Part shown: positions 1 to 30,219 of the stretch, piece by piece
Layout: every line of letters begins with the position of its first letter
Position numbering within the stretch: the stretch's first letter is position 1
Source of the DNA: Paraspadella gotoi
Lineage: Eukaryota > Animalia > Chaetognatha
Reading direction: 5' to 3'
Assembly: GCA_051294375.1 (NCBI GenBank)
Contig: CM119266.1
Coordinates: forward strand, 20,099,657-20,163,656
Length of the DNA stretch: 64,000 nucleotides
Notes under the pieces: generated by a model
The model's database searches: none
Told to the model about the DNA's origin: nothing
What the model saw: the letters and a program-made list of their open reading frames with translations, nothing else
Program-made: the position numbers and the translations under genes

Positions 1-581
1 CTAAGACTAAATCAATTCAATTCATTTATTAACAATAATCGAAATACCTTGTAAGCTTATTACCTTCGAATGACTAGATCATGCAAATCTTCCTTTTTCT
101 ATCCTGCAGTGCAGAGACTGTTCGATTCTAAAGACCGGTTTTTAACCGGTTTGAGTTTTTATTCGAGCTCAGAGTTTAAATTCTTGGCTTTTGCACAGTA
201 TTCGAAATTTAAGGTAGGCATATTTTTTGCGGGAGTTTAAAAAAGGGTCCGAGAACAGTTGATGACACAATACTAAATCCAAACGTGAATATCAAGTTTT
301 ATTAAGTAACATTTTATATTATTTATCGAATACGATAACTGGCGTTTTTTAAATTATAGTGATATTGATTATATTAGTATAATAAGTCACCTTATTATAT
401 ATTTTATCTAAAAAAATTTAAATAATTTAATCGTGGCAAAATTTAAAAAATTGAAAAAGCTTTATGGAATTTTTTTAAAAAATACTAAAATGACCAAGCC
501 CGAAATAAAATCTTTTGTTTTATTTATTGTTTCATGAAATTATTTCAGTCACGCGATTAGCTATTGATCAACATCGAAAAC

Positions 582-2216
582 ATGAAGCGGAAAACAGAAC
601 ATTTTGCAACTTTGTTCCTCTACTTTGTGGCCAATTTTTACCCGTCGATGCAAGAAATTCGATTCGACATCTGCGACGTATCAAAATCGTTTTCCACCGA
701 CGATCTTGCAAATAGCGGCATCACCCTTTTAATCTCTACAGGGTTAAGAAATAATTTCATCGAGAGCAGGAATCCTCGAGTTCTTTCCCACTGCAAAATT
801 GTCCTTTCGCTGGACTCTAGCAAAACCACCGAGATCAGCTTTCGGGAACCACCAAATAGAAAATTATTAACTGAATCCACCCGCTATTGCCTAAACTTTG
901 AATTAGAAAAGGCGGGTGTTCAAGTTCGGACGGAATCGTTGTCTTGTAATACCACCCAGCCATCCAAAAAAATACTGATTTATATCTTGGATACGGAAAA
1001 ATTGACCCTTCGAATTGATGAATCTGTGGCGGTGACGGACAAACTCGACTTCGAGATTTTAATTAAATCGCAGGATTACTCAATCGTTGAGCCGAAATAT
1101 GTGTACGCGACAAACAAATTACTATTCAAATGCGATTACGAAAACAATGATTATCTCTCTCCAAATCTATTTAAGGGAGACATAGATTTGACCGCCAACT
1201 TGGTTAATCGAGAGTACCGTCATTCATTGGCTGGCGATACTCCTAAAAACGCGTCTGGTCGTTATGATTGTACCTGGGGCTCCTCCGCCTCAGATCGTCG
1301 TCCACTTACCTCCTTCTATGCCGTGGTGTACTCCACCCGAGTAATTTGCGAAGTTCAGGAGCGCAATGATGTTTCAAATCTCCTTTTGACCAGAAACGAA
1401 AGTAGAGGCTCTGAAATCCAACTCGTCGTTCCGGAAGGAACGAGTCTTTCGAATTATCGTATGTTGTGTTCGCTCGCCTTCGGCGGGACCGAAGAGTCGT
1501 CAAAAGCAGCCACACTTGATTGGGAACCACCACTCGGCTATAACGGTCCGGAGCAACCCTTTCCTGAGACACATACCTCGAACGCTGACCTCAAATCGCG
1601 CGGACTACTTCACTCGATCACAGTCAACGGTTCCGTTACTTATAAGTGCCAGTTGACGACGAATGTCTCGATTGATGGCGGAAAACCTCAACCCTGTACA
1701 ATTCGTTTTGTCACCGAGAGGGTGCTGGAAGAAGAGGAGCGGTCAAGATCTGCCGGATTGTGGTGGATCACAATCATTGTAGCTATCGTAGTCATTATCA
1801 TCGTCGTTGTAGTTGTGGTGTGCGTTAAGGTACGATCACGGAAATCCAAAGATGGCCGGACGCCGGTCATATCCGAAACTAAGTCAGAGGCAACTTTCGA
1901 CGACGTGTCTATCGACACTCGAGAAGTGGATTTGAACGACAAAGCCAGCGCTGCGGACGACAACCCATCGGTCAGTCCCATTGAAAACATTCCCGATGTT
2001 GCTGTAGTCACACCCTCACCCGATGTGACCACGCCGACGACCACGATTGATCCACCAACGGACATCGAGGATAACGACGCGAAAGTTGTTTACGCCAACG
2101 CTGCTTTGGATTCCGTGGCCGAAAAATCGAAAGAAACGATCGGCAAAAAAGACGAAAATCCGTACTATGACGTCGTCGCCGACGGAGGAAACGAAATTTT
2201 GGAGGAAACCGTTTGA
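582..2216 (+). CDS. Intronless orphan type I single-pass membrane protein with putative divergent Ig-like ectodomain and Tyr/PDZ motifs in the tail
   Basis: Long open frame; first ATG at 582 follows an in-frame TAG (558-560) and an acceptor-like tttcag (547-548). N-terminal hydrophobic stretch FATLFLYFVANF; TM GLWWITIIVAIVVIIIVVVVVVCV followed by KVRSRKSK; Y-x-C motifs (SGRYDC, VTYKC); C-terminus EETV; AATAAA just after the stop. Confidence 0.8.
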   Translation: MKRKTEHFATLFLYFVANFYPSMQEIRFDICDVSKSFSTDDLANSGITLLISTGLRNNFIESRNPRVLSHCKIVLSLDSSKTTEISFREPPNRKLLTESTRYCLNFELEKAGVQVRTESLSCNTTQPSKKILIYILDTEKLTLRIDESVAVTDKLDFEILIKSQDYSIVEPKYVYATNKLLFKCDYENNDYLSPNLFKGDIDLTANLVNREYRHSLAGDTPKNASGRYDCTWGSSASDRRPLTSFYAVVYSTRVICEVQERNDVSNLLLTRNESRGSEIQLVVPEGTSLSNYRMLCSLAFGGTEESSKAATLDWEPPLGYNGPEQPFPETHTSNADLKSRGLLHSITVNGSVTYKCQLTTNVSIDGGKPQPCTIRFVTERVLEEEERSRSAGLWWITIIVAIVVIIIVVVVVVCVKVRSRKSKDGRTPVISETKSEATFDDVSIDTREVDLNDKASAADDNPSVSPIENIPDVAVVTPSPDVTTPTTTIDPPTDIEDNDAKVVYANAALDSVAEKSKETIGKKDENPYYDVVADGGNEILEETV

Positions 2217-2958
2217 AAAATAAAGTTATTCACATGGAACGAGACCGATAGAACGCGATCTTGTCAGACCTGTATTTAGTTATTTTCAAGAATCACGTGT
2301 ATGGCAATGTATGTATTGGTTCCTATTATGACTACTATTGTTAATAAATTCGATTATTCATTCTTCTAAAACTTAGCTACGTAATTATGGATAAGGCTGA
2401 ATAACGGTAGACGCAACTTTAAAGTTTAAGACTATAACAAGCCTAAGAGTAAGACTAATAAGACTATTGGCTAATGGCTATGTCTGCTCAATAAACGATT
2501 GCCGTTGTGGGTCGACGACCCCCTCTCTCGGTCACTTCACGAGGCTCTTTGATTTGACTTTTGTTTTTAAAAGTTTAACTGCCAAAGGCGACGCAGGGAG
2601 CGAAGAAAAGATAGAATGTTTTGTACAATGTACATTTATAATATGTATTTCCAAATACTTTTATTATTAACAATTGAATTAGAATTAGAGATTGTTACCA
2701 CCACTATTTAGCTTCCACGTTGCCGGATATTAGAAATAGACAAAATATTCAAAATAGATTGGTTAAAAACAAGAAGTAATCAACATGGGTCATAGAAAAT
2801 AGACTCAACCAAAAAAATCTTAAAAGCATAAGGATCGTCGCAATCGCATAAGAAAAATCTGCATTAACGACAAATTTTGATACTAAAAAAAATAAAATTT
2901 GAGAAAAGAAAATTAATTTATAAATAGAAAGAAAATTATATTTTATAAATTATAAATC

Positions 2959-3060
2959 TTAGGAATTGTTTATTGTTTGCCAATACAACGATTTTTATTT
3001 ACATAGTACATGTTTCGACTCTGTTGATTCGAGTCTTCAAAAATGCTCTACACATTAATT

Positions 3061-3096
<36 letters not shown>

Positions 3097-3866
3097 AAGA
3101 GAGAGGAGAGAGAGTGGAACACCCAATGCCACCCCAACCGCACGGTGATTCCCCTGTCCCAACTCAACGGGTCAGGCGGAGGCCTCCCGGCAGGCAATGG
3201 ACGTCCGATACCTCTCCCGAACCTGTAGCAACTTGGCGTGACTCTCTGAACGCCAAGCGCCGCCCAAAACGACGGCTACAGGAGGAGGGAGAGGAGTCTG
3301 TATCTCCTGCACCAAAACAGGCAAGAACAGGCAACTGCCCACCTCACCGTCAGGTGAGAGGAGGGCCTTCGGCAGGCTTATCAGGCCAAAGAGATATTAG
3401 AGTGGCACTTGGTATTTTCCCAGCCGGGTCTTTACCTGACCCCATGATATCCCACTCTACAAGAATATCATCTCAGTCTATGACAAGCCAATGACCCGAT
3501 CATATCGTCAGCGTCCCACCTTTGTCCACCCGGGGGGGCCAGCTCATTTTGAGCTCTTTCTTCTCTTATATATATTTCACTTAACTATTAACTTATCTAT
3601 CCCTCACCACCTATTCCTCCATTTCATTTTTCATCATTATTACTTATTTAACTTTTGTTAATTCAAAATCTCAGCTTATTTCTAAGTTTTTCTAAATTAT
3701 TCTTTGTTGTACATTGTCAAATGTAATTATTTCTCTCTCTCTCTCTCTCTCTTTCACTTTTCACCATTTCAAAATTATCTTCTTCTCTGTTCTTACCTTC
3801 ACCTGTCCTCTCATCTGGCCACTGTCCTTTACTCAGCCCTTTGTTGAAACTCTCCCTCAATCTCTC

Positions 3867-3900
<34 letters not shown>

Positions 3901-4023
3901 ACTTAATGTGTAGAGCATTTTTGATAATGTTTTTCAAAGCTGATGAAGACTCGATCAACAGAGTCGAAACATGTACTATGTAAATAAAAATCGTTGTATT
4001 GGCAAACAATAAACAATTCCTAA
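2959..4023 (+). mobile_element. 5'-truncated Penelope-like element (PLE) remnant with inverted pseudo-LTR copy
   Basis: 2959-~3070 is the reverse complement of ~3890-4023, apart from a ~20-nt deletion that removes the CTGATGA box in the left copy. The right copy contains a minimal hammerhead motif typical of PLE pLTRs. Confidence 0.6.
3931..3984 (+). ncRNA. Minimal type I hammerhead ribozyme motif
   Basis: CTGATGA (3940-3946), stem II GACTC/GAGTC, GAAA (3966-3969), palindromic ACATGT stem III, GTA cleavage triplet (3973-3975), imperfect stem I TTTTCAAAG/CTATGTAAA. Confidence 0.7.
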
Positions 4024-4277
4024 TATTCACTTAGCAACGAATAGAGAGAAAATAATACAAATTATTAAAATCAAAGTTTCTTAAAAAAAGCGGAAAAAAA
4101 AACAAACAAAATTTTCATTGTCAAGCCCCTGTGAAAAAAAAAACGAAATAAAAACGCGATGTTGCGATAGCAAAATGATAACATGCACGAATGCGATTAT
4201 AATTTTATAAGTTCAATCCTATTTCAATTTTTTTTAATAAAAACGCAGAGAGAGAGAGAGAGAAAAAAAAAAGAAAT

Positions 4278-5341: not shown

Positions 5342-6074
5342 TATGGCAACAGCCGGGTTGCCTGTGATGCCCATTGGGATGGGGCATCTCACTGTTGGCT
5401 TTGGGGCTTCCGACCCTCAGTGACGCCTCCAGTCACTGGCGCGGTTACCCAGGACGGTCTCCGCTTTGCCACACGCAGAGGGAAGTCATTAGGACTGTGG
5501 ATGGAACACTACGCCTGGGATGGTGTGTTCCCCCTCTGAGCCAATGGATTTGGCTGCCGGATGGTGGACGTGAGGCGGTGTGAATATACCACCACAGGAT
5601 CCCGGGCCAAGCATCACTCATGGTTCCTCAGCCTGAGAGGTGTCTGACAAGACTGTTACCATAGTGGAGGAGAGAGAGCGCGAGTTGTGGGGGCATAGGG
5701 TTTGTCGTAGCGTACCCAGGGGCATAGGCGTTTGTCGTAGCGTACCGAAGTCGGCAGGGCATAGGCGTTTGTCGTAGTGTACCCTGAGAAGGTTGCGTGT
5801 TCGATAGTAGGGCTCACCACTTATGGCAACAGCCGGGTTGCCTGTGATGCCCATTGGGATGGGGCATCTCACTGTTGGCTTTGGGGGCTTCCGACCCTCA
5901 GTGAGCCTCCAGTCACTGGCGCGGTTACCCTAGGACGGTCTCGCTTTGCCAACGCAGAGGGAAGTCATTAGGACTGTGGATGGAAACCTACGCCTGGGAT
6001 GGTGTGTTCCCCTCTGAGCCAATGGATTTGGCTGACGGATGGTGGACGTGAGGCGGTGTGAATATACCGCCACA
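5342..6074 (-). mobile_element. TRIM-type non-autonomous LTR retroelement, family A (full length)
   Basis: Two ~255-bp direct repeats (5342-5596, 5822-6074); TSD ATGC (5338-5341, 6075-6078); minus-strand LTR ends TGTGG...CCATA; PBS TGGTGAGCCC 2 nt after the 5' LTR; ~225-bp non-coding interior with three copies of GGGCATAGGCGTTTGTCGTAGCGTACC. Confidence 0.9.
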
Positions 6075-6085
6075 ATGCTTCATAT

Positions 6086-9000
6086 TTACACTCTCACCCC
6101 TTCCACATGGGTTACGAGAGTGACAGAGACGTCGTGGAGAGGTATGCCGCTTGGCGGTCCCCCGAGATAAACGTCGCCTGCCGCCGCTTGCAATTCGGCG
6201 ATTGTGAGTTTTTGAGCTCTCGCGTCGACGTTCGGGACGTTGGCAACACCGCCGCTGCCCAAAGAATTTTCGCCGTATTGGTTATCGTCGGCGTCTTGGT
6301 TAGGGAGTCGTAAGGTGGCGTTGGAGAGATCGCCTCGCCCTCGACGATTGCATCGATTCTTGCAAGAGGAAGGAACAAAGGTACGGACGAAGCATTGCCG
6401 AAATTGAGTGAAGAACAAAAGGTAAATTGGAAAGTTCGTGGAAGAGTTCACCACCAAAAGTAAATCGGTGAATTCGCGCACTCCTTTTTCGAAGTTGGAG
6501 CCGTCTGCGTACTTAGGACCTTCGAGAGAGTCATATTTACATTTAATCTTGTAAAGTATGCGTTTTTAGTAACTTAAAACTAAAAAAAATTATCCCACCC
6601 GTACCCCGCGTTACATTCTATTCTAGGTTTAAAACTTGAGAATGTGCATTCATGTGCAATTGTGCATGTGAATGTAGAGTCTTGTGAAAAAAAAACCAAA
6701 AAAAAAAAAAAAACGCGTCACTATGTATCAGCCCTAATAAGTCACCATGTATTCTTTGATTTCGATTTTCAAGGCAATTAAAAAATAGGAAGAAGCAATG
6801 TCAATGATTGTAAATCTTAACAAAATTCGATTTACCTAGATCGCGTTTGGAATACTCAAGTTTAAAAAATATTTACTCTTAAAGCACGGATTCTGATAAA
6901 ATTTATTGATCTCATGTTTTAAAATATTCGTATGAAGAGTCTGGAATTTAAAGTTAAAATTGGCCCTTTTTTCTTTTTTTATCTTTTCCACAGGATTGTA
7001 TTACGTCACTACAGGTATTTTAAGGCTTGAGCGTCAAATTGTTCCATATTATTCTCGGGCCACCGAAATTTCTAATTATTTTTATCAAAAAATATTGGCT
7101 TCTTTTTTTGAGTAGTTTTTAGTTGCTCCGCGAGTACTCACGGAGCAACTCTATAAGTCACGTTTCGGTCGGTCGGTCGGTCTCACGTTAAAAATATACA
7201 TAATTTGATTATAGTTATTTGTTGAGACAGAAAAAACCTCAAATCTAAGGGACTGCTAGTGCCGCCTTCAGGAAATCCTAAAACTTTAAAGAATAAAAGA
7301 CAGAATTCCGATGCAGTGCGTGTCATAAATATACAGGCTAAGAAAGTTATAGTAGTCATGTAGTGATGTCATGTCGCGTCACGAAAAATACACTGTGGCG
7401 TAACACATTGGATGAACCGATCTTGTTTATTTTTTATAAATTAAATTTTGTCTGAGTTGTTAGCAGATTAGCAAACAAATTTTATGCTGTCATAACATCT
7501 TTTTATTACTGATACTTACCAATAATCAAACTGATGAGGGCGTCAGGCGTAATGCAAACAAGGAATATGACGAGAACAACGATGAGCATCATAGTGATGC
7601 GATTTTTCTTTCCCTAAAGCGCATTAGTCATTTTATTTGACGTGACACGGATTAATATATAGGAAAAAGAAGGGAAGAAAAAAGAAAAAGAGATACTTAT
7701 GACAAATGAAAACTGGACCATGATGTTCTAAAATAGGCATACGTGAAAATGATCCATTTTAATGGCCCCTTTACGATCCACCTCACTTTTTTTCTAACTC
7801 TTCTCTTCGCTTTTCCGCTATATAATTTTCTTTGATGAATTACCGCAGGTTTTCACGCGAAGAAAAAAAAAGTTTTTAGTCGCGTAACATAGGGGCAGCC
7901 GAACTCAGTGGGGTAGGTAAAAAATTTTAAGTTAATATCATAAGTTGGGGAACTACTTGAGGCGACTTACCACCGGTCGTTTTTTATGTATAAGTTTCAT
8001 TTCGTGTTTAATTCATTTACTATTCTATGTTTAATTTTTTATCTAACAGTAAAATTGGCGAAAAAAGACCATTTTAGGCATGTTTTGATCGAATTTTTAA
8101 AAAAATTTACATCTTAAGAAATCCCTATTAATGGTCTAATCAATGGCGTATCTGAATTATCGTAATGTGTAACTTCTGAGTAATGATTTTTTATTTATTT
8201 TTTTAATTGTAAATCTTAAGTTTTCTTTATACAATTCGTCCATTTAGAAAAAAATGCTGTCTGAGCATATTCTTGACTGTCTTGAATAATTATTCCCAGA
8301 TAATTTTTAATTTAATGGTGTGAATGAATTTTAATAATTTTAAGTAATTAATGAGTAATTAATTTATAATGATTTTCTTTTTTTTTAAAGATTCAGTTTT
8401 TTACTGAAGATGAAATTGGATGACCATTAAAGAAAGCTTGTTTTACATAAGTAAATATCAAATTAATCTCATGAAATTAAAATATAATAAACGTCAAGTA
8501 CTTTGAGGAAAGAAAATTTAAAAAATATTTATTCAATGAGAAATAGTACGAATTTTTTTGGTGTCACTCGCGAACGGACACGGGGTACATAGAATTCCAC
8601 TTATTCGAGTTGCGCATCAAACTAACTTTCCTGATTGGTCGACAATTAGGCATGCTGTCTACGTCTCGTTACTTTTTTTTTTTGTTTACCTTGGCCGCTG
8701 TGCGTCCTTTAATTCGATCTTTCCTTAATCCTTTAATGATGAAGACGTTGAGAAAGAAAAGTATGCAGAAAGGAACGATGGAACGTAAAAAGCTCTGGCA
8801 CCAACTGAACGCGATGAAAAACGTCGCGTTATGACCAAAGGAAGTTAATTCTGTAGCGGAAAAGAAATTCTATTAATTAAGGAAGTTAATTCTATTAATT
8901 AATTATATTAATTCTATTATTTCTATTAATTAAGGAAGTTAATTCTGTAGCGGAAAAGAGATTCTATTAATTACTTTCTATAAAATGACGTTACACAGTG

Positions 9001-12000
9001 ATATACACTTCCATTATCCATATGATATCACCATTTGGTTTGTCTTTATTCAAAGGAGCACATGATGTTAATTTTGAACACCATTTTAAAGAATTTGGCC
9101 TGCGTTTTTATTGTATTACTAGTTGCGTGTCTGTCTGTCTGTAAGACACTTGTGTGTCTGTCGGTCTGTCTGTAAGTCGGTCTTTCCGTCGGTATGTCCC
9201 ACTTACGTTTTAAATGCTTCTAACTCTGGTAAATTTTTATTAATTAAGTTCATATTTGATATGAATGTAAGGTACCATAAAACATTTTTTGTTTATCTAT
9301 CATGCTTGTGCTTGTCAGGGATATTCGGTTATTTTCATTTCCAATTCCATAAACATAAAATAATTATAAGACTTACCAACATCTGGATATTCGGTGATAA
9401 GAGAATTAAACTCAGCGGGAGAACCTTCCAACTCGGTAATATTTTTTGTCACTATAACTGAAATAAAGAATGGAGGTATTGACAATTGAGGGTTTAACTT
9501 TCAACGACTGCATTTATAAGAAAATATGTATAATTTTTTAAATTTAAATTTATTTTAATTTATAAAATAAAAAAAAAGTGGATCCACGGATTGTTTGAAT
9601 AGAACCAGTTGTTTAATAATAATAATTAATATAACAATAATAATAATAATATTTAATAATTGAGATATATTTACGCGTTCTTTCTGCTCAGGATGAATGC
9701 CGAGTAAAAATGGCTTTGTGGCGGTCATAATAGATGAAATAACAAGTCGGGGAATAATAGAATGTACAATGTAAGAGGAAAATATTAAGCCTTGACTCTT
9801 TCTATCTCTTTTTAAACGTTCCCTCAATATCCCTCAATATTTTTTAATTTCAATTTAAAACGGACATGTTTCGGCTTGTAAATTTTTAGGCTTTCATCGG
9901 CGTTAACAGTTTGTGAGTGATTTTTGTGAGTGAGTTATTTTTCGTTTAAAATTTTATGAAATGTGTTTTGCCCGGAAGAAACTCTGTTTTTACGAGTTTC
10001 TATTATAAACAAGTTAAAAAAGAACCATTACAGTGTAGCTCCGCTCTTGTACGGTATAAAGTTATTAAAACTTAAAAAGTTCTAAATCAAAAAATCTATA
10101 ATTAAATAATAAAAGTTATATACTAAAAAATTTGAGAATTTAAGCAAAAAAAATCTTGTACATACTACATAGTAAACTGATAAGTATATATTGTTCACGT
10201 CACCCTATTCACAACATGATTATATGTTTATTGTTTAACATATTCTTTTTAAATTATACAAATATGATATATAATCCATTGATTTACCAGTGTGATATCG
10301 AAATCCATAGGGAATAGCCGCCATAGTCATGGTGCCGAAGACAACCACTGACACAACTCTCGCGCGAAATATGGTGCAGTAGTTTTTAGCCAGATGTGGG
10401 TAGCAAACTGATACGAAACTGGAATAAAAAAAATATAGTTATCGTCAGTCGTCATATTATCAAGTTTAAGCAAACAACGTGGGATCTGCCTAAGATAATT
10501 TAAATACATAGAATTAGCTAAGCAGATCATGTATCATGATAAACGTTAAAATATATTTTCGATTCATAATAAAAGTGAAAATAAGGAAATGATTTAAGTA
10601 CATGGTGACAATTTTATAAGCGCCGGTAGAAATATGCTGTCATTTGCAAACCAGTGGTTATTTCATTGATTTTTAAAATTAGTTGAGTAGAACATATTAA
10701 AGTCATTTATGTGTTTAAATTTTATATTGATCAGTTAAGATATGCCTTGGCAATGAGTGGAGAAAGTTGGCTTGTAAAATCGGGTTTCATTTTCTAACTC
10801 ACTTTTTTAGATTCAATTTTTTTTCTTACCTTCAGTAAGTTTTCTGAAGAAATTTAAAATAAAATAATATTAATATTATTATCTTCTGAAAGCCCTTTCA
10901 AATCTAAAGAGAATGACATACTTGCAAATACTGTAGTATAAAATTTAACCGGCCCAGCTTTAATTTAATTAGGATACTCAAAAACAAGACATATTTCCAA
11001 AAATCAATAGCTGGAGGGTAAATTTAAGATTTTTATCAATTGTGATTGGCTATCCTAAATCTCTTAAATTCAGGCTCTTTCATGATACTTATATAAATAA
11101 TAATATTTTATGTTATAATAATTTAATCAGGTCATATATTTTCAAAAAAGATTTGAAATTTTAGATAATTAACTTTTGACTCTCTTAATTGAACCAAGGC
11201 TGGGCAGCTTAATTTTTATGTTAGAGCTTTCATAAGTATATCATTCTTTTCATTTTTTTAAGGGCTTTCTGAGGATATTAATATTGTTAATATCTTAATA
11301 AATACTTTGTTTAAAAAAGAGCTAAAAGTTGAAAAAAAAATTGAAATTAAAAACAGTGAGTTAGAAAATGAAACCCGATTTTACAAGCCAACTTTCTCCA
11401 CTCATTGCCAAGGCATATCTTAACTGATCAATATAAAATTTGAACACATAAATACTTTAATATGTTCTACTTAACTAATTTTTAAAATCAATGAAATAAC
11501 CACTGGTTTGCAAATGACAGCGTATTTTTACCGGCGCTTGTAAAATTGTCACCATGTATATTATCAATTGCAGTACCCAATGCACACTTCCGGCCTAGTA
11601 CTCGGGTTCACCCCGCATTGATCCCTCATTCTTTGAGTGAAGCCGCAATTAGGTTACAAGTTTGGTAGCAGATTAAGGTTAAATCTTAGGATTACAATTA
11701 GTTTCAGGGTTTATGGTACAGAAATTGGGGCGTTTTTGGAAGAAAAGAGCCAATGATTTAATGATTAGAGATGATCTAAATAATTTACCGACAAGATATA
11801 TACTAAAATAGGGGGTTAAGATTTTACCTCTTTCATTCTCAAGGAAAATGTTTACAATATCTTACCGTTCGATTCCAATGAAAACCGTGAGCCATGATGT
11901 AATGCAGACTGAAGCGTTCATGACGTAATGACTGCAAAATAAAAATGAAAATTAATTAGTCAAGTAATACAATCACTTTTGTTTTTTTATGTCATAAATA

Positions 12001-14282
12001 CGTAGTCTTAAATTTTTAACCCCGAAGTCACAACAAGTTGAACAACCTCAAATCGGAGTAGCATCGTATCGTAGTACTTAAATGAATTATAAGAATCAGT
12101 AGTCTATGAGAGTCTTGATTGAAAACTTTCAGAGACCTGCCATGAGATGGAGGACTCTCTAAAGTCAGGGACAAGATAGCTTATTAATTAAATGAATATA
12201 TTTTTTTTGATATTGGTTGCGCGGATCCAAGTTGAGAAAAAAGCGAAATAATTAAACCTATAGGGATAGAGGTGAGCGAAGACTGTTTGACCCTCGGCTT
12301 CTCCGACGGCCGTGAATAGAAAATTGACGACGAAATATAAGAAGTCATTGGTCAACTGAAAAAGTAAAAGGCAAAAAAAAAAAAAAAAAAATAGAAAGTT
12401 TATACGCAATAGGTTAAATTCGTTGTTTAGTTTTAAAAAAATAAGTTAATTATATGTAATAAGTTCAAGTACAACGCTATGAAAAATTTATTTCACTCGA
12501 GTGGACTTTTGGCAGCGGGTCACAACCAAGCGCACAAGTACAAAAATGAAAAAAACTAATAGTTTCATAAAAAAAAGAAAGAAAGAAAGAAAGAAAGAAA
12601 GAAGAAAAAAAATAAAGAAAGGAAGAATTAAACAACAAATGAAATGAACAGTGAATAAGAAAATAATAAAACATAGGAAGGAAATAAATAAAAATCATTA
12701 ACTATTTCTTTCAACGTCCTCACAAGCGTAGGGATTGCAATTAAAATTATGCGAGTTACTGTGCTAAATACAAAAACAATTTTTTGCCAAAATTTTAATC
12801 ATTTGTCATAATGTTAAATGTCATAATTGTATTCTATATCCTCAAAATTATTCGTTTTTTTTTTAAATTAATTTTCCGTTTTTCTCTGTTACTGCTTTAC
12901 CACTGATCATGGCATAGAAATGTATGCGAAAATATTTGCAGTAATTCTCATTATGAAAATACACATCATTTTAATGATCAAAAAGGTTATTTTGTTTTCT
13001 GTCATACAAGGTTATACCGTTTATAGCCACTTCTGCGTTTGGTAAGGTCACGTGCACTGAAGTGATGATATCTGAATTCCGTTTCGCCGCGATATTCAAT
13101 ACGTGGCATCCATCCTTTTCGAGCTACGTCTACGCGACCCGCCATTAACTTTTTTTTCTGTTGACGCCCTATCGAATGACTCGGCTGAGACGTGCTTTGG
13201 CAATCACCGACTTAATAAACGGCTTACGTGCGACACAGTATCATTTTTCGGGTGACGCCAAAAACAATTTAGGTTTTATTTATAAATTATAAGTACGTTT
13301 TCTTTCTCATCTTCTCCATCCTCCGCTCTTCATCTTTTAGTCATTATCTCTTGCTCACTTTCTCATCTCCTCACTTGCTTTTCATTCTTTCTCCCTTACA
13401 GGAGTGGGATCATAAATCATTGGCCGTTTTTCGCACAATGATTTTTAAAAATTTTCCCCATTCATCATTGCGTTAAAGTGCAGTTGGATTTTGAATAGTA
13501 AAATTTCAAGTAAATGACATTTGATTAAATACCTTGGTAAGTGATCCTACGTAACTGACCTTGATCAAATCAGAGGCTGCCAACGCTCCTAGATATACAT
13601 TAGTCGACGTTTGCATTTTTTTGTTGGTAAAGATGATGAGAGAGAGAAGGTTTCCCACTATTCCGAACGAGCAGACGACAGGGTAGCAGTACAGACCTGC
13701 GTCGAGGTTTGGCCTCGCTTATTTAGTATTACATAGGAAATAATGAAGCGGGAAATGCACACTGCACACTGCACACTGCAGTGCACAGGTCACCCCGCTT
13801 AGAAATATCATTGAGTAAAGCCATCTGCTCATGACCTACCGGATTTCCATCCTAACACGGTGCCTTGCCTTCAAGAAGCATGAAAACGGCCGTAAACTGC
13901 CTTGGGACCTGATTCCAAGCCCAGGACCAGTTCCATTGCTGCTAGTGGGGGTTAAAGAAGTTGTGAATAGTCAACTTCAGCCCACTTAGCGCCTTATCCA
14001 CAATAATAAAGGGAGTTAAAGAAAGGTTTGAAAAGTATGACCGCGGGTGGTAAGAGGATCTTACCGTAGAGTTACTACAATTACTAAGTAACAATATCGA
14101 CATTTTCGATTTCTTTTTAAGCTGCCCTGAGGATTAGTCACGTGGGGCTTGCCTGTAATGTCACGTGCGGTTCGGTAAAATATTTCATATTGATCGATGG
14201 AAGAGTCGTTCTCGTTGTTCCGCTTGACGATTTGCGAGGGCGAAGTGGCAATGAATTCTTTGCTTGAGTTTGTAGAGTACAT
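6086..14282 (-). CDS. Class A neuropeptide GPCR, FMRFamide/MIP(sex-peptide)/myosuppressin receptor-like
   Basis: Exons 14282-14153, 13696-13560, 12355-12258, 11931-11866, 10418-10288, 9457-9377, 8850-8690, 7613-7520, 6519-6086 join in frame. TM1 GIVGN, TM2 LAASD, TM3 SWLTVFIGIERF, TM6 FLVCITP, TM7 NSSTNFPIY. Intron 1 has a GC donor. Confidence 0.9.
7117..7430 (+). mobile_element. HINE/DINE-like interspersed repeat (terminal hairpin plus GTCG microsatellite)
   Basis: Hairpin AGTTGCTCCG..CGGAGCAACT followed by (GTCG)n. Related copies at ~14610-14905 (-), ~17575-17885 and ~23075-23360. Confidence 0.55.
9856..9906 (-). ncRNA. Degenerate minimal hammerhead motif (probable PLE relic) in a GPCR intron
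   Basis: Minus strand reads AACG CCGATGA AAGCCT..AAGCC GAAACATGTC CGTT: same GAAACATGT core as 3931-3984, but with a U4C change and a damaged stem II. Confidence 0.45.
10601..11556. mobile_element. Foldback MITE / non-autonomous Tc1-mariner-type DNA transposon with long TIRs
   Basis: CATGGTGACAATTTTA... and ...TAAAATTGTCACCATG; about 200 bp of near-perfect inverted repeat plus weaker inner arms; flanked by TA on both sides. Confidence 0.85.
13780..14005 (+). repeat. Interspersed repeat family (CACCCCGC..TGAGTAAAGCCATC..CTCATGACC; TTCAGCCCACTTAGCGCCTTAT)
   Basis: Partial copies at ~25775-25865 (reverse) and ~36070-36128. Confidence 0.6.
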
Positions 14283-14905: not shown

Positions 14906-16020
14906 ATGAATAAAAGTGACTCCGCGCATTTTTCCGCCACGGATTCCGCAACGTGGGGCGGGGGGGGGGATTGTGGGTTGGAGTGAGGATAGGCGTTGTA
15001 GAGACTTTGGTTAGGGTCTAGGCGTGTAGAGGATAGAGTGGACGGAACCTTTCACGGGTAGAAGTGGAAGACCGGAATTGAAAATTGAAAATCCCTCCTT
15101 CAAAGTTCAATAAGTTTTCCACTTTCACTTGCATATAAAAAAAATTGTCGCGGTTTGGAAAAGTCGGTTAATTTCAATGTCAAATATATTTCTTAACCGG
15201 TAAATAGGTTTTAATATATAATATGACCTCCCTAGGACTGAATGAAAATATTATTTTTAACAGCATAAAATTATTTTAGGCATACAAATACTTCCAAAAG
15301 AGATCGTCTCCAAATGTTTTCACCTCTTTTTGATCAAGAGGTCTACTCAATTATTCATTAATTCAATAACATAATAATAATAATAATAATCAATAATAAT
15401 ATAATTCAATACTCAACTACTCATATTATTTTAAACCAGGCTTTAGTTATTGCTGCATAATGTAATGATGCATTATCTTTTACTTTAACAAAATATTTGA
15501 TTTTTTTTTTACTTGTTTAATACTTGGTTCTGATAATACATATACAAATAAAAATAATAACATTGCTCACAGAAAGGTTACCCAGAGCCTTATAACTTTT
15601 ATCGATACTTTACAATATAAAGAAAATATTTTGGAGCATTTACAGCATCAATATATTTTTAATACAGCTCTTTTTTTGACATATAAATTAAGATTCTATC
15701 GTAATGCAATAACCATTTGGCATGAGACTGGGAAAAGGCAAGAATTTTTAATAATAAAAAGTAATAAAAAAGAACCGGAAATTAATAAATAAAAAATGTA
15801 GATATAAAAAAGATAAAAAAGAAAGAAGCATTTTTTTTTAACAATTCATTTTCTTTTGCATAGAACTCTTGTATTTTTTGTCATACATAAATGGGACAAG
15901 CTCATATGAATTACAAGAGGCCAAAGTTTCTCAATATCTAAATTTTATTTTTCGATTCTTACATTAAAATGCCGAAAAATAGCTGGAAAATAACCGCGAC
16001 AATTTTTTCTATCATGATAC

Positions 16021-16673
16021 TATGGTGGACTAAAACCCACCAACCGTTCATGCAGGCGCATTTGGTGCCAGAGGCAGTCATTCGCCTCCCAACCCAAAGG
16101 TCCGGGGTTCTAGCCCGGTGGTCGTCTGGCAGTTAAGAGGGACGGGGCGCTTAACCCGCCTGTAACATGGTGTTACAGCCTGATCCGAAGCTCAGGGACT
16201 GATATTGAACGGTTCTGTCATTAACACATATCAATAATTACTGTCTCTTCTTTGGTGAGCCCGACTTCCGAACACAACAGCAACAACAACACTTTCAGGC
16301 GACATGCCTCAACCTGGCGATGCACTTTCGCCCCCACAACACATCAGGCGACATGCTCAACTTGGTGACGCACTTTCCACCAACAACAACAATTCACTGA
16401 AGAGACGCAACGACATCTTCCTACGGGAGGGGGGATGTATGGTGGACTAAAACCCACCAACCGTTCATCAGCGGCCATTGGTGCCAGAGGCAAGTCATTC
16501 GCCTCCCAACCCAAAGGTCCGGGGTTCTAGCCCGGTGGTCGTCTGGCAGTTAAGAGGGACGGGGCACTTAACCCGCCTGTAACATGGTGTTACAGCCTGA
16601 TCCAAAGCTCAGGGACTGCTTATATTGAACGGTTTCTTGTCATTAACACATATCAATAATTACTGTCTCTTCA
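16021..16673 (+). mobile_element. TRIM-type non-autonomous LTR retroelement, family B, with a tRNA-like module in each LTR
   Basis: LTRs 16021-16251 and 16436-16673 (3' LTR TGTATGG...TCTTCA); PBS TGGTGAGCCCGAC at 16253; polypurine tract GGGAGGGGGGA 16425-16435; TSD ATAC (16017-16020, 16674-16677); interior with two imperfect repeats TCAGGCGACATGC..CAAC(C/T)TGG..GCACTTTC. Confidence 0.92.
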
Positions 16674-19400
16674 ATACTAAGATAAAAAATATTGATGGGC
16701 TGTTGGAATTCGATCTCCAAAACTAAAAATTTGCCAAAACTTTTTTATTTTTACCACAGTTGCACAATACACAAATATACTTGCAATGTCAATGTTATGG
16801 CACAAGTCGATTTAGAAGACAAAGGAAAAAAAAAATTTTAAATAATCGTTTTTAATAAAAGATAAATGATGCCCGGCGTTATATATTTTTTTTTAATTTT
16901 TGGTTGGAAAGCATTGATTCTGATTCTCCAAAAGGCTTTTAACTGAAAGGAATGAAACGTGACAAATGGAAAAAAAATTATGAAAAGACAAGAATAAAAA
17001 AAAAACATTAACCGAAGACAGGAAATCATTACAAGAGTAATACTCAGTAAGGAATAAACTGTTTGGGCAGAAAAAGGCTGCATTTTGGGGAAGAAAGAGA
17101 AGTAAAGAGAGGAAATTGAAGGGAAAAGACATCTTTGTCTTTGATTGGTGATATTGAATTGAATTCCTTCTATCCTCATTAATGATTTTATTGAATATTG
17201 TATTCTTTATAAACAATTTCGCCTGTTTATAGTTTTATATAGATTAGTAATTTGTAACAGCATTTGAAATTAGCAGCGAAGCTACAAAAATTTATGGTTT
17301 TTTCTCATAAAAAAATCAAATTGCAGCCCGGAAATTGATCCCGCTTACTTTTCCGCGCCCGCCCATTTCGGTTTGCGTGACTTCTCCGAAGGAAAAGAGA
17401 ATTTTTGACTTTTCGGCGCGAAATTTTCCATTGTTCTCTCCATGTTAACTCCAAGGTGTGCTTTTTACAACTTGCTGCGATTTTTGCATTGCCTTTCTTT
17501 CCTCATCCTGCCCTTCAGAGTTAAACTTAAAGAATGTGGGTAGAATCGTCCATCTCTCCGTATTTTGTTGTTATTTTTAGTTGCGCCGCGCTGCTACTCG
17601 TCACTTGACGGTCGGTCGATCAGTCGGTCCCACTTACAGTAAAAATTCTTATAATTCGGGTAATACTGAAGTCACGTGATTATCTTATAAAGCGATCACA
17701 CAACGCAGATTCAATACGGCTTAAACTCGGTTGCTAGCTAGACTGCGAAAAAAAATCGTAGAAAGAATAAAAGACGAAATCCGATGCAGGGCATATCGAA
17801 CGCTCACGGTAGTCACTTGATCACCCTAAAATACTCGTGAAAGAAAGTTACTGCGGCGCAATACACATTGAAATGACCGGTCACAATAACTATTAAAGTT
17901 GTGCAGTGACACAGTTGAATACAGCATTTCGACTCGTAATATGATGTAATATGGACTCAGAATATGTTATTGTCATTCTCAAAATTTAACGAATTGAAAG
18001 TACTTTTAGTCCAAAAATAGAATATAACTATCTAGATTTAAAATAATACTATTTCGATCCCCGATGTTTTAAATTTTTTAATTTTTTTTAATTTAGTCGT
18101 CTGACCTAAACGCATCGACTCTTTGACACAATGCACATTTTACATAAATTTGGATTATTCAATATTCATTCTTTCTTTCTTTCCTCCCAAGAGTTGTTTT
18201 TATATTTAACCGATGCTGCTTGAAAATTGGAACCAATTAGTCGGTTGTCAAATTAGCAAGTCGGGGTTTGTTTCATTCAAGGGAAGGAAGGCGAATTGTT
18301 AAAAAAAGAAAAGATGAGCTCATTTTTCACGTTGAATTTGTTCTTTATTCTGGTTGTCATCTGAGATAGCTTTTTTTTTAAATTTTAATCCTCTACCACT
18401 CAATTTATTTCGCAAAATTCAATTATATTGTTCCAGATAAAGGGATAATTAAGATTAATGGTATTAAAAGAAAAACCGATTGGTTCGAAAAAATCGTCGA
18501 CCCTATTTCTGTTTTACACAACAGTAAATCATATATTATGACTTCAAAAATTGACTACTCCAAGTTTAATCACTTACCCGACTTGGATGTGCTATACAAT
18601 GGTGAGATGAATCGATTCAGAGGTCCAAAAACTTTTAACTGGCTCGTTAAATAAAAATAGTGAAGTTAAAATCCTTTAAAAATTTCAGCACTAGAAATTA
18701 GATTTTTTTTTTTCAGTGCTTCATAAGGGGAAACAATTTTTTTTTAAAGATATAATCACAAATATATTGTATTTCCTTAGTGGCTTATCATCACAATTTA
18801 AATTTAATATTAAAACAGTACGTAAAGTCAGAATGTAGAAAATTAGTCTTGTCCAATGTCCATTTCGGAAAGTTTTCTCGAAAAAATAAATCTTCTCTTT
18901 GAAAGAAAGAAAAAAATGGGCGCGGGTTGAAAGGAGCGGCGCCGTATAGACGGCGTTGTCGTCGTCGTCGTCGTCGTCGCTCTCCTCATCCTCTTCCATC
19001 GCGTCATTTTTTCTCCTCGTCGACGCATTCATTCAGAGGCGTGTATAGTATACACTGGCCTGTGGTGCTGATAAAAAATATATATATCATAAACGACAAC
19101 AACTCGGCAACAACAACAACGATCGAAAAGCTGAGGAGCAAGCGATGCAGGTAGGAGAATAGGAGGAGGAAGCGCTTGCTCATGAGGATGAGGACCAAGG
19201 AGCAAGCGAGGAAGGAGTGAAGGGAAAAATGACATTCAACTCTTGAAGCGAACTGAGGAGCGTTTGGGACTAAAACTTTAAAATGATTGATTGATTCCCC
19301 CTTATCACCCCACTCGCTCCGCGTTCCCCTACCGTGTGGACACGATGGATCGCGTGCGAAAACACTTGTCAGTGACGGCTCTGATAGCGTTTATGATATA

Positions 19401-21277: not shown

Positions 21278-24200
21278 TTAGTCATTCCCTCGACTCCCCA
21301 ATGAGTCTATTGTCTGCATCCACTCAATGAGCGACTTGGTCAGCTGAAAGTCAGCTTCGACCAGTCTTTCCGTGATATCGAAATGGTCGGTTCCGCCAAC
21401 ATCCTCCAACGAGGCGTCGAAGCCGTGTCGTCGACACTCGGAAGCAAACGCGGCGCTTTGACGCCGGAATTCGGGCGAATCGTTTTCGGCGACGGCGACA
21501 CGAATTAAGAAAGACGTCGAGTTCGGTGCAACCGCGGCCACGCCCTCGGCATCGGTGGACTCGGTCTTTAAAAAAAAATATTTGAGTTTATTGACTTATG
21601 TTCCGTTAATGATTATAATATTAATAGTAATAAACTCATCACTTTTTGTATTGGAAGGTTTTGAATGAGTAGTAGGGGGCTGTTGCGCCTGGCCTCCGCG
21701 TCATTCATCTTGACGGCAATGTTGACGGAAGTTCGAAGAAGCGGAAGAAGATTGAAAACCCCGCTGATGGGAAATACTCCTTTAGGGTTGTAAGGCGAAA
21801 AAAATTAAGAATAAAATGAAAATAATGACCGTCCTAGGTAACCGCGCCAGTGACAGGTGGCGTCACTGGGGGTCATTGAGGGTCTCCAGAAAAATGTAAA
21901 AATGAAAAGGATAAAATAGAAGGAAGTATTTTTTGGACAATTTAATTTCCTTTTGCATAGAACTCTTGTATTTTTTGTCGTACACTTCATTGATAGGGAA
22001 GCCAGGTTCACTGGGAGTGAATAAATAAGACTGTGAGAGAGTCTTGATTGAAAGCTTGCAGAAACCTGCTATGTTATTATATTGTAGGTGTGATGGAGGC
22101 CTTAAACCACCAAAGCCTGTCCAAAGTCAGGGACAAGATAGCTTATTTATTAAATGAATGGATAATTTTTATATTGGTTGTACCAATTTCATAAAATTTT
22201 ATTTTATTTTCATTAAAATTAATTAAAATGCGGATAAATAGCTGGAAAGTAACCGCGACAATTTTATTTTCCATCATGGTAAGTACCGAAAAATGGCTTG
22301 AAAGTTCCTCCATAGTAATACTTAGCGAGACTTTCAACAACACTGACCTCTAAATGTCGACTCTTGCTGTGAGTCGAGACCGAAGCACTGCCATTCGGTC
22401 AACATGAGCATAGAGACAAGCTGACCACCGGCAGAATGACCCACAGCCACTGCCCAGGTCCCAGACTTCGCAGCCTCTCGCAAAACAATAGCAAAACCTC
22501 GCCTGACTTGATTCACGATTTCGTCCAGACTAACCTGAGGTAGAAAATATAACCAAAAGGGAATAAGTAAATTATAGAATCCTTCGAGTCCTTTAATTAG
22601 TTTTAGATAAACTAATAGAAAAAATATTTAGAGAGAGAGAGAGAGACTTAAAAGAGTAGAAAGAGACGCTAGAGTCTAGACAAAAAATAAAAGAAAATGT
22701 GACAGAAACAAAGTATTGGAAAAGGGCAGAAAAAGAAGAGTTTGTGGTGGTCTACCATCACAAGTTATAAGTTACTAGTGTCATGTTGAAAGTAAAAATT
22801 TCCCCCGAAACTGTTACTTCACTTTTCATATATACTCAATATAAAAATCGAGGAAGAAAGATGATAGAAAGCCTGTCTGAAGTCAGGAGCAAGATAGCTA
22901 ATTTATTAAATGAATAGATAATTTTTATATTGGTTGTATCAATTTCATACAAAGCCTTGTGTTTTCTGATTTGAATGATTTAGCTCTTAGTAAAGCAGAA
23001 ATAAAAACATAGGTATGGGGTGCAACTGGAAGAAAGGACTAAAAAAAGATTTGACCACATTTTTTATAACATCTTTCGTGGCGCCGCGAGTAATCGCGAA
23101 ATATCACTATGAGACACTTGGGGGTCGGTCAGTCGGTATGTTTGTCCGTTAATTGGTCCCTCTTACGTTCAAACTGCTTATATCTCCTTCAGTCGGGTGC
23201 TTTTTTGTCATTTTTGTGGAGATCCTCGCATCTAAGATACTATTAGTAGTATCTAGTAGTACTTGCACTAACTTTTTTTTTTAATCGTAAAACGCAGGTT
23301 GAATGCTTATTGGTGGTCACGTGATCACCCGGAAATATCCGTGATAAGACAGTCACATTTGAATTTGTTCTTTTTTTAAAACCTAAGATATATTAATAAT
23401 TTTGCGAATATTTTTAGTATAATTCGTGCTTAGCGGTTAATCGAGTTAAGTCTAACCAAAGTGACAAGTTCTTCACAACCAGCTATTAAAAAAATATATA
23501 TATATAATGAGAATTTTGGATTAGCTAAAACGAAAAATCGGACCTTGGGAGCCAAGTCGTACCCAAGCGCCACAAACCGGAAACCGTGGGCGTTTACGGA
23601 GTCGGCGAAAAAGCCAGATGACGCCACGTCCAATGCCTGCCAATAACCCCCGTGGACGTAAACGCAAAAAGGTCGAGAAGGTTTTCCCGAAGTGGTTGGA
23701 GGAGGTTCGAAAACGTGAAGCGACGTTTCATCTGGGAAATGTAATGTAATTGTATTACAATTACTAATTGTAAGAGTGAACCGAATTTTAATTTATTGTT
23801 TCGAGTTGATTAAAAGACATTTTTAGAGAGAATTAAAATAGTAATAATAAAAAGAAATTTAAAAAAAAAGTTTTTTAGTTTTATGGAAAAAAAAAACTTA
23901 GGGGAGAGAATAAGTTAAGATTTGGAGGAGCATCTGGCGCAATCATTTTCTAGTCGCCTATCACTTTTTGAAGCTCGCAATCTCTGCATAGTGAATATAT
24001 CATTTGCAATTTTATCGATTGTGCCACAGGCGGCACGTCGACCTCTTCCCTTTGGTGATGAAAGGCGAGGGCAACGAATTACAAAGCGAGCATTGACGTG
24101 ACAAAAAAAAAAGGTCGTGACGTGGCACAAAAAACGCGGATCGCACTCGAGTAAAAAAAAAAGCAGATCGCACGCAAGTCACTACAATTCCATAATAATC

Positions 24201-25382
24201 GCCACCGGCGCTACTTCAGCACGACCGACATTTTTAAACTTCGAAAATTTTTGTTTTCTCTTATACCGTTTTTAAAATTAGAGGTGGATATAAAAAACTT
24301 CGGTGAATGAAGGCCGCCGACGATGAGTCACCGAGTAAGGGCAAATGGGTCATACAAAGTAACATTACGTTCAAACTGAGAGCAAAGTAGAGACACACAC
24401 CCCTTCGAGTTGTCCAGCATGAAAAAATACGTAAGAGACTAAAAATAAAAATCGTAAAATTAAAGGAGGAAAAAAAAGTCGCTGTTCAATAAAATATTGA
24501 ATTTTTGAGCACAAAAGGATCAGCAAAGAAGAGTCATCGAACGAAACGCCATCGCCAGGCGGAAAAACATACTTTAGCCCGGCGCCTATTTTTGCTTCTC
24601 TATTATAAAACGAAGTCAGCTTAAGAAGCGAAATCTCCTCTCAACGTAAATAAAATTCCATCTTTTTAAATTGATATTTTCGCCACAAAAGTGAAAATGT
24701 TAGAAAAGTTAACTTGTGGCGGTATATTCACACCGCCTCACATCCACCATCCTTCAGCCAAATCCATTGGCTCAGAGGGGGAACACACCAACTCAGGCGT
24801 AGTGTTCCATCCACAGTCCTAACGACTTCCCTCTGCGTTGGCAAAGCGAGACCGTCCTAGGGTAACCGCGCCAGTGACTGGAGGCGTCACTGAGGGTCAG
24901 AAGCCCCCAAAGCCAACAGTGAGATGCCCCATCCCAATGGGCATCACAGGCAACCCGGCTGTTGCCATAAACTCCTCTTTAAATTGTACAAAACCGTGAA
25001 TATCACTAAGTTGTGAAGAAAAAACCGTGATCGGGGAAAATTTTCTCCAATAAACGAGGTTTGATTAAGGCACGAAGAAAAGCATTGAATATTAAGAATC
25101 TTTTTTCGTATCAATCATTAAATGATCAAAAGCACCTAAATTGAAAGTATCTCGCTAAAGTAATTGAAAAGATCTATCCATACCTGATTCTCCGTACTTC
25201 ACCACGCTGTCTGGATGACGTAATTCGCACATTTTTGCCAACGTGTTTATATGATTTCCGACAATAGATTCTGGGGAGAGCCTCTTGCACCACTTAGAAG
25301 GTGACATTTGAAGTTCAAAGTCTTCGTCAAACTCGGTCGTTTCCGCGTCAGAAGTGTGGGCGCCTTCGGTTTTTTCCGCCAT
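21278..25382 (-). CDS. AFMID: Kynurenine formamidase (arylformamidase), alpha/beta hydrolase
   Basis: Exons 25382-25184, 23731-23544, 22534-22348, 21779-21643, 21565-21278. Motifs SPSKWCKR, VHGGYWQ, GYDLAP, GHSAGG, ISGVFNL, AENDSPEF and DHFDI. Confidence 0.88.
21827..21884 (+). mobile_element. Internal fragment of the family A LTR
   Basis: GACCGTCCTAGGTAACCGCGCCAGTGAC..GGCGTCACTG matches the solo LTR at 24716-24969. Confidence 0.75.
21950..22195 (+). repeat. ~250-bp interspersed, sometimes tandem, repeat family (core GCCTGTCCAAAGTCAGGG(A/G)CAAGATAGCTTATTTATTAAATGAATGGATA...TTGTACCAATTTCATA)
   Basis: Other copies at ~12095-12225, ~22860-22950, ~46170-46340 (-), ~48238-48733 (two in tandem) and ~56382-56458 (-). 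Confidence 0.8.
24716..24969 (+). mobile_element. Solo LTR of TRIM family A in AFMID intron 1
   Basis: Single LTR TGTGGCGG...TTGCCATA flanked by TSD AACT on both sides. Confidence 0.9.

Positions 25383-26464: not shown

Positions 26465-30219
<3,755 letters not shown>

Follow-up and report, generated by a model that had tools for sequence, protein, structure and literature searches.

The window analyzed here is a stretch of 64,000 nucleotides from the chaetognath Paraspadella gotoi (GCA_051294375.1, contig CM119266.1, positions 20,099,657 to 20,163,656 of the forward strand), and all coordinates below are positions within it. It holds exons of a rhodopsin-family GPCR (8672-13718, minus strand), recognized by weak Pfam matches, a matrix metalloproteinase (matrixin) with a Thr-rich hinge (31188-33931, plus strand), a divergent, intronless innexin (59211-60626, plus strand), cathepsin B-like exons identified by eye (62820-64000, plus strand), and a frame for a 551-aa membrane protein (561-2216, plus strand) to which a protein search found no relatives. 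The innexin and matrixin genes mark the host as an animal, and protein searches gave no close named relative. Long inverted-repeat elements (MITE-like) and a 23-bp tandem array occupy 10599-11558, 2955-4027, 27931-28173 and 41396-42109. About 2.3 kb upstream of the first transmembrane exon of the GPCR lies a 653-bp element (16021-16673), the single copy in the window of a repeat family that we refer to as B; its parts are listed in Table 1 together with those of two comparison families, A and C. An older repeat is common to 15792-16019 and 21890-22281, and both element B and one copy of family C sit in it or at its edge.

Table 1. Features of element B and of repeat families A and C (window coordinates)
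Feature	Position	Strand	Basis or remark
Left 4-bp TSD	16017..16020	+	same 4-mer as 16674-16677 (one insertion only)
5' LTR, 231 bp, starts TA	16021..16251	+	alignment to 3' LTR
tRNA-like module, 5' LTR; A-box-like 16063, B-box-like 16106; 5' acceptor strand damaged	16055..16126	+	LTR comparison, box scans
P5-permuted twister motif, 5' LTR; predicted cut 16152^16153	16138..16196	+	descriptor, parse, Rfam/Schistosoma consensus
Predicted unit between cuts, 417 nt, without terminal redundancy	16153..16569	+	inferred
Internal region, 186 bp, non-coding	16252..16437	+	sequence; frame and domain scan
Primer-binding site (PBS), likely tRNA-Trp	16253..16265	+	comparison with published PBS
Polypurine tract (PPT), then 2 bases before 3' LTR	16425..16435	+	sequence
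3' LTR, 236 bp, termini TA..CA	16438..16673	+	contig loose ends; TSD
tRNA-like module, 3' LTR; A-box-like 16479-16490, B-box-like 16523-16533	16471..16543	+	tRNA model, box scans, folding
P5-permuted twister motif, 3' LTR; predicted cut 16569^16570	16555..16613	+	descriptor, parse, contigs
P2', 3' LTR motif	16555-57
G-A, 3' LTR motif	16558-59
Pseudoknot strand, 3' LTR motif	16560-62
P1, 3' LTR motif	16563-68
U^AA, 3' LTR motif	16569-71
P2, 3' LTR motif	16572-74
Second pseudoknot strand, 3' LTR motif	16575-76
P3, 3' LTR motif	16578-94
P4, 3' LTR motif	16596-600/16609-13
L4, 3' LTR motif	16601-08
Right 4-bp TSD	16674..16677	+	same 4-mer as 16017-16020
Family A TRIM, 734 bp, 4-bp TSD, related PBS, no clear PPT	5342..6075	-	comparison family
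Family A solo LTR	24715-24970	+
Family A solo LTR	37346-37593	-
Family A fragment	21827-21875
Family C twister motif	22089..22131	+	further copies 48382, 48649
Family C repeat copies	21986-22194; 48265-48472; 48560-48734		fragments 12155, 22868, 56382
Family C repeat copy	46162-46342	-

Element B has the anatomy of a TRIM. The alignment of its two LTRs has 7 gap positions and 223 identities among 230 aligned bases, and the LTR start at 16438 is marked in three public runs by loose ends, where 137, 73 and 25 contigs, respectively, pass into unrelated flanks. The last base of the 5' LTR is T in the window copy and A in every contig of the public runs that covers the position. By eye, the PBS agrees at 12 of 13 bases with the tRNA-Trp PBS printed in Fig. 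S2 of PMC10886601 (in part; here and below, these words mean that a statement rests on portions of the source). Within 16385-16415, the internal region holds ten bases complementary to the 3' end of the LTR (16660-16673, and 16242-16251 beside the PBS); the predicted duplex of 10 bp (-13.7 kcal/mol) is a possible leader helix for priming. Five frames of at least 55 aa overlap the element, the longest of them 64 aa, and none holds a retroelement domain; one weak Pfam match fell below the cut-off.

Family B is highly repeated, since 17,861, 2,920 and 1,093 contigs of the three runs match a 901-base stretch around the element; this stretch includes a piece of another repeat, and neither these contig counts nor the summed depths are copy numbers. 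The third of these runs may be of RNA and does not serve here as evidence of expression; of the further runs, one gave two contigs, confined to the LTR tail and the interior, and the single certain RNA run gave none on the element. Variation within the family was read from per-site contig tables of the best-supported rows (the best 40 of 138 in the main table); a second such table, the source for the variants at 16485-16529 other than 16486, excludes the 30 bases nearest the ends, hence the acceptor strands fall outside its scope. A similar hairpin of 6-7 bp opens the LTRs of families B (16440-16461) and A (6052-6074, minus strand), and the base found at 16453 in most B copies (among the best 40 of 138 rows) lengthens it. 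In both families, moreover, one end of the LTR reads TA where CA would be expected, the left end in B (16021, 16438) and the right end in A (5342); this single TA end and an identical terminal 5-mer hint at a common integrase.

Each LTR carries a tRNA-like module, which is real but degenerate. The sequence-only reading had drawn this module in the 3' LTR as 72 nt at 16471-16542, and these are present as quoted. Folding of the module, either by itself or together with the sequence on its 3' side, gives each pair of the 7-bp acceptor-like stem a p of 0.75-1.0 (in the fold of the entire LTR, the outermost pair falls to 0.11), and the A-box-like (16479) and B-box-like (16523) motifs are both there. 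The T stem, described as an intact 5-bp stem, did not hold up: it barely forms (p 0.02), its 3' strand being taken up by a longer acceptor helix instead (p 0.98), and its TTC lies one base out of the tRNA loop register. An alignment to a tRNA model that restores the register leaves the T loop one base short and the stem with mismatches. The module of the 5' LTR does differ in the 5' acceptor strand, as had been said; since that version occurs in hardly any contigs of the public runs, the differences are private mutations or assembly errors.

The tRNA-likeness of the module is above chance. We built a tRNA covariance model from 24 of 29 distinct E. coli tRNAs, excluding five with long variable arms, and found that 16471-16543 tops the 13 matches in 128 kb (both strands), with 16.8 bits (rough E about 0.01), compared to 11.8 bits for the next-best match in the window; the module of the 5' LTR reached 8.2 bits in a partly shifted match. 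ARAGORN called 0 tRNAs, and Rfam gave the module no tRNA match at E up to 10 and the whole window none at E up to 5, nor did it find a 5S or SINE-head family. A hand-made pattern of A plus B box had the two LTRs as its sole matches on both strands of the window and occurred in 23 of 3000 LTR shuffles. The stems alone occurred in 219 of 3000 shuffles and stems plus boxes in 0 of 3000, with a pattern composed after the module was seen. When the boxes were scored with weight matrices from an E. coli tRNA alignment, the score of each LTR was reached by 2 of 200 shuffles. Box B has an exact GGTTC core and agrees with the full consensus at 10 of 11 positions, box A agrees at 3 of 5 (TRGCY) and 2 of 3 (YGG), and the spacing between the two, 43-44 bases, is tRNA-like.

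Variation among copies bears on how the module should be read. Position 16542 is mostly C in other copies (66%, 54% and 99% in the three runs), by which the first acceptor pair changes from G-U to G-C. Position 16486 is mostly G (86%, 99% and 98%), which weakens the A box, and a minor C-to-A variant at 16485 (12%, 3% and 6%) would give the A of tRNA position 14. CpG transitions account for 4 of the 12 variant rows in 16485-16529, and the B-box bases 16527 and 16529 show as much variation as the positions around them. Folding did not predict a cloverleaf as RNA. Given this and the site variation, we take the module for what is left of a DNA promoter rather than for a mimic of a tRNA. By sequence, it is probably tRNA-derived and a Pol III promoter, and the copy in the 5' LTR is likely to be the promoter used.

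Three hairpins had also been noted downstream of the module. The first does not form (p 0.0), whereas the second and third do (p 0.57-0.99), and these are P3 and P4 of a twister. We rejected the view that the hairpins are mere decoration, since together they form a P5-permuted twister motif, which we mapped on the Rfam type-P5 consensus and on published Schistosoma twisters. (We call the 3-bp pseudoknot T2 and the 2-bp pseudoknot T1; the numbering is reversed in PMC5408937, in part.) The motif is closed by an outer stem, and its layout is identical in the 5' LTR, 417 bases earlier. The L1 nucleotides (UAA, GA), L4 and the two pseudoknots are complete in the 5' LTR, in which P1 (16146-16151) is 6 nt long and self-complementary. 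The 3' LTR has one mismatch in the 3-bp pseudoknot, at 16604, and its P1 palindrome is broken at 16566. The base that pairs at 16604 makes up 76%, 95% and 92% of summed depth in the three runs, and the mismatch of the window copy is a minority state. P4 has 5 bp (p 0.97-0.99), and of the two stems that are optional in twisters, P3 has 7 bp and the closing P5 has 4-7 bp; the flanks of P3 closely resemble, by eye, those of the Schistosoma twisters in the published portions that we compared. P1 is too short for a hairpin; as a self-duplex, the 5' LTR version has -8.3 kcal/mol. The joint of the predicted circle has the same sequence as the LTR.

A strict descriptor of the motif had two sites in the window, in the 5' LTR of B and in family C at 22103, compared to 0 of 5000 LTR shuffles and one site in 10 shuffled windows. 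When one mismatch was allowed, the 3' LTR of B was added (three sites), and the background rose to 2 of 5000 shuffles and four sites in 10 windows. Both descriptors were composed after the motifs were seen, and the strict one missed family A.

Families A and C allowed us to follow the motif beyond element B. Both LTRs of the family A element hold a twister motif (the U that precedes the cut is at 5927 in one and at 5447 in the other), with a 4-nt P2 and an 8-nt palindromic P1, and part of the element scores 14.4 bits (E 0.95) with the Rfam twister model, compared to a gathering score of 67.2. Its PBS is near-identical to that of B; its A-box-like motif is strong and its B-box-like motif weak, 33-35 bases apart. 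The A/B-box scores of this family are reached by 0 and 8 of 200 shuffles. Family A has the termini TG..TA, 4-bp TSDs, short internal tandem repeats and no purine tract before the 3' LTR. Family C has the best Rfam twister score of the window (Twister-P5, 25.6 bits, E 0.0009), which is under the gathering score of 37.6. We found no A or B boxes in family C (109 and 133 of 200 shuffles reach its scores); thus Pol III is not needed for every twister repeat here. Two of the family C copies lie about 270 bases apart at 48.3-48.7 kb.

We parsed 11 repeat copies of the three families loosely and found that eight fit the twister layout (two of B, three of A and three of C); a diverged copy and two partial ones failed. 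Pairs were counted by script, as the family A twister loop was misaligned by MAFFT. Among the eight parsed copies, the 3-bp pseudoknot is complete in six, the 2-bp pseudoknot in all eight (one with a G-U), and P1 is self-complementary, over 6 or 8 nt, in six. At the first position of the 3-bp pseudoknot, where the Rfam and Schistosoma consensus has G:C, families A and B both have C:G and family C has U:A. The middle pair of this pseudoknot is flipped to C:G in A, and a G:C of the 2-bp pseudoknot has become A:U in C. Thus, both pseudoknots covary across the three repeat families in the window, and since these are related lineages, the changes amount to few events, not many.

Other findings speak against twister activity in family B. 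Rfam gave the family no twister match at E up to 10. P2 of B has two direct pairs, or three with a bulge, compared to the canonical four, and P2 is imperfect in all eight parsed copies; a review suggests that altering the length of P2 might disturb the active site, and states that P1, although conserved, is not needed for cleavage in vitro (PMC5408937, in part). Moreover, a local hairpin that sequesters the strands of the pseudoknot and of P2 is predicted with p 0.99; it is more stable by 7.7 kcal/mol than the nested fold compatible with the twister, a comparison of nested folds that leaves pseudoknots and dimer out of the count. The predicted circle is 52% paired (z -2.1, 60 shuffles), and RNAs of retrozymes are quoted as 70% or more paired (PMC4918200, in part); thus the circle of B falls short of the high self-pairing of LTR retrozymes. 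The plus strand of the element has no run of four T, a weak observation since 160 of 2000 shuffles likewise have none.

Weighing these observations, we arrived at a reading that we regard as evenly balanced between right and wrong, namely that family B is a Pol III-driven, twister-cut mini LTR retroelement, whose RNA forms a 417-nt circle that a Gypsy-type partner copies and integrates. Pol III transcription, cleavage and circle formation are what we infer for this family. Specifically, TFIIIC would bind the A and B boxes as DNA and Pol III would start near 16055, possibly reading through because no T4 stops it, a step that we consider somewhat probable; with similar, mild confidence we expect that the twisters would cut at 16152^16153 and 16569^16570. 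More tentatively, the self-complementary P1 may pair two LTR copies of one transcript, or two transcripts. That the 6-nt P1 is self-complementary and stable as a duplex suggests that the LTR motifs pair, comparable to minimal hammerheads, which act as dimers (PMC6765202, in part). The released 417-nt RNA would carry the PBS, the interior, the PPT and one permuted LTR, with no repeated end. Since a unit cut in this way has no repeated R region, ordinary strand transfer would be impossible, and ligation into a circle would replace it, as modelled for plant retrozymes (PMC4918200, in part). The competing hairpin would stop the circle from being cut again and could be an off state. tRNA-Trp would then prime at the PBS, and a Gypsy reverse transcriptase and integrase would make new copies with 4-bp TSDs; a Gypsy partner is also the one given for animal Helenus families (PMC10886601). 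At the RNA level, the tRNA fold probably has no function of its own, and the lost register of the T arm would shield the unit from RNase P and RNase Z.

A further-reaching version of this mechanism, which we put forward as a tentative possibility, would make the element an animal LTR retrozyme that combines a tRNA-derived Pol III promoter, a dimeric permuted twister with palindromic P1, and Gypsy priming around a 417-nt circle, with the several families here and a hammerhead-bearing wasp Helenus as independent arrivals. If the twister worked as a dimer, only transcripts with two LTRs would be cut and solo LTRs would be silent.

We considered that B might instead be an ordinary Helenus element, the published class of TRIMs with tRNA-like LTRs, in which a linear Pol III RNA with a repeated R goes through the usual reverse transcription and the twister of B is an inactive relic or plain structure. 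B does have the structural features of Helenus, with a box A that agrees in part, a promoter upstream of the motif yields an R region without any ribozyme, and the short P2, the blocking hairpin and the missing Rfam match of B are all as this alternative would have them. However, the pseudoknots are kept with two-sided changes between B and C, both of which have a shortened P2, and most copies (among the best 40 of 138 rows) retain the pairing base at 16604. Kept pseudoknots and a kept pairing base are hard to explain without selection on the tertiary fold, and we consider the ordinary Helenus unlikely, while giving it serious weight.

If the tRNA-like module were a passenger SINE head in one LTR lineage, the element could be a twister retrozyme transcribed by Pol II or by read-through, with its unit defined by the ribozymes alone. 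Family C, with its twister and no A or B boxes, the degenerate A box in most B copies (among the best 40 of 138 rows), and the proposals of read-through (PMC7761336, in part) or of an LTR promoter (PMC12029980, in part) for plant retrozymes agree with this idea. We find it improbable, in view of A and B boxes that stand at the tRNA-like spacing of 43-44 bases and beat shuffles, of the scores of family A for the same boxes (0 and 8 of 200 shuffles), and of an element without a T4 terminator.

The palindromic 6-mer could have another function altogether. Retroviral dimer signals are palindromic loops, the minimum-energy fold of the B motif puts the 6-mer in an 8-nt loop of the local hairpin, and the 6-mer duplex has -8.3 kcal/mol; on this account, the 6-mer would be a kissing-loop dimer signal for packaging in Gypsy particles and not P1 of a twister. 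Such an account leaves the conserved twister core and the covarying pseudoknots unexplained, family A is predicted to have a different local fold, and we hold it to be very improbable as a replacement for the twister, although the two roles of the 6-mer could coexist. Hardly credible, finally, is the trimming of the transcript by RNase P and RNase Z at the tRNA-like fold that the sequence-only reading had suggested: the acceptor-like helix is stable and gains a G-C first pair by T-to-C at 16542 in most copies (among the best 40 of 138 rows), but a T stem with p 0.02 that is out of register makes such trimming unlikely, neither ARAGORN nor Rfam accepts the fold, a CCA is missing, and cleavage within the module of the 3' LTR would part the PPT side from the remaining unit and so split what replicates.

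We prefer the twister-cut, Pol III-driven element, and most of its components have precedents. A tRNA in the LTR of a TRIM is known; ribozymes in LTRs are known from plants, as hammerheads; Pol III together with a ribozyme is known from SINE-like repeats of Schistosoma; and twisters in retrotransposons are known from non-LTR RTE elements (the last three from portions of the sources cited below). A literature search that covered sources other than subscription journals and supplementary twister lists turned up no description of twisters within LTRs, nor of an LTR retrozyme in an animal. Element B is a variant of Helenus/TRIMp3, and its more interesting part is the permuted twister motif. If this twister is active, the circular-RNA route of plant LTR retrozymes would extend to animals, with a different ribozyme class and in an element that brings its own promoter, and twisters would have a second concrete job in eukaryotes beside the 5' trimming of RTE elements. 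The natural variants with short P2 and palindromic P1 also probe what the fold requires, and a 417-nt unit with a 60-nt motif is small enough to be cheap to test.

The comparison with Helenus (TRIMp3) decides how much of the earlier interpretation is new. Helenus elements, TRIMs whose LTRs are tRNA-like, have been described from six animal phyla, where they carry Gypsy-like PBSs and are flanked by 4-bp TSDs (Kojima 2024, PMC10886601); they are thought to have arisen by insertion of a SINE into an LTR, and their Pol III activity is unproven (PMC10886601). The sequence-only reading had seen a TRIM with a tRNA-like Pol III-type module as an animal analogue of Cassandra. Our results support the anatomy of a TRIM and a promoter module that is tRNA-derived and probably used by Pol III. 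They do not make B a new analogue of Cassandra, since element B fits Helenus and the idea of a tRNA in an LTR was already published. Like Helenus, B is short and non-coding with two LTRs (653 bp, inside the published 311-1263 bp), and it has a tRNA-like module with A- and B-box-like motifs in each LTR, a PPT and the 4-bp TSD of the animal families; its PBS corresponds to a tRNA 3' end, that of Trp, as in Helenus-2_SyJa (in part). A weaker likeness is the tRNA-derived LTR sequence, recognized by the E. coli-based model with ARAGORN and Rfam negative. In contrast, the A box of B is more decayed than that of most families in the listed part of the Helenus data, no T run follows the module, the termini are TA..CA, and the module is followed by a twister motif, while PMC10886601 mentions no ribozyme. 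Six short motifs of B had 0 matches in the text of the Helenus supplement, in which FASTA line breaks could hide a match, and a motif search and inspection by eye found no sequence common to B and the Helenus families in the listed part; on that basis, B is a new family. In the LTRs of Helenus-2_SyJa and Helenus-2_SyUm (Data S1, PMC10886601, in part), we noted by eye a hammerhead-like core behind the tRNA module, together with a Trp PBS.

Cassandra resembles B in being a TRIM with a Pol III promoter derived from a small RNA in its LTRs (PMC7215508, in part; PMC10886601). It differs in that it is a plant element with a 5S-derived promoter (boxes A, IE and C), and in that its short R region is made by Pol III start and stop (PMC7215508, in part; PMC10886601); as for a 5S-derived promoter of the Cassandra/Ajax type, Rfam found no 5S match in element B at E up to 10. 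The Sm-alpha SINE-like repeats of Schistosoma share with B a Pol III promoter followed by a self-cleaving motif, and a promoter that ends at the 3' end of the released unit; they are, however, tandem non-LTR repeats with hammerheads, and have no PBS, PPT or integrase-type 4-bp TSD (PMC6765202, in part). With twisters (RF02684, type P5; RF03160, type P1), B shares U^AA, the catalytic G-A, P3, P4, an 8-nt L4, two pseudoknots and the closing P5, as well as the association with retrotransposons, which is also seen in the Schistosoma T-variants of Perere-3 (PMC8501958, in part). Those published retrotransposon twisters lie at the 5' end of non-LTR RTE elements, whereas the twisters of B are permuted, lie inside LTRs, and have a 3-nt P2 strand, a 6-nt self-complementary P1 and no Rfam score.

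The closest functional parallel would be the LTR retrozymes of plants. Like these, B is non-coding, with a PBS, a PPT and a 4-bp TSD (Cervera et al. 2016, PMC4918200, in part), and has one motif of a self-cleaving type per LTR, a unit that lacks R, and a partner presumed to be Ty3-Gypsy (PMC4918200, PMC7761336, both in part); its predicted cuts lie 417 nt apart in the arrangement found in plant LTR retrozymes. Published animal retrozymes, in contrast, lack LTRs, PBS and PPT (PMC7761336; bioRxiv 10.64898/2026.07.22.740005; both in part). Plant LTR retrozymes differ from B in their type III hammerheads, their tRNA-Met primer and their units of 600-1000 nt, they are found in plants only, and no Pol III boxes are reported for them in the consulted portions of PMC4918200 and PMC7761336. 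Circles are demonstrated for the plant elements (in part of these sources) and predicted for B. A scan for a hammerhead core found none on either strand of elements A and B, and Rfam gave no hammerhead match. Element B would work like an LTR retrozyme, yet the place of the hammerhead is taken by a twister motif.
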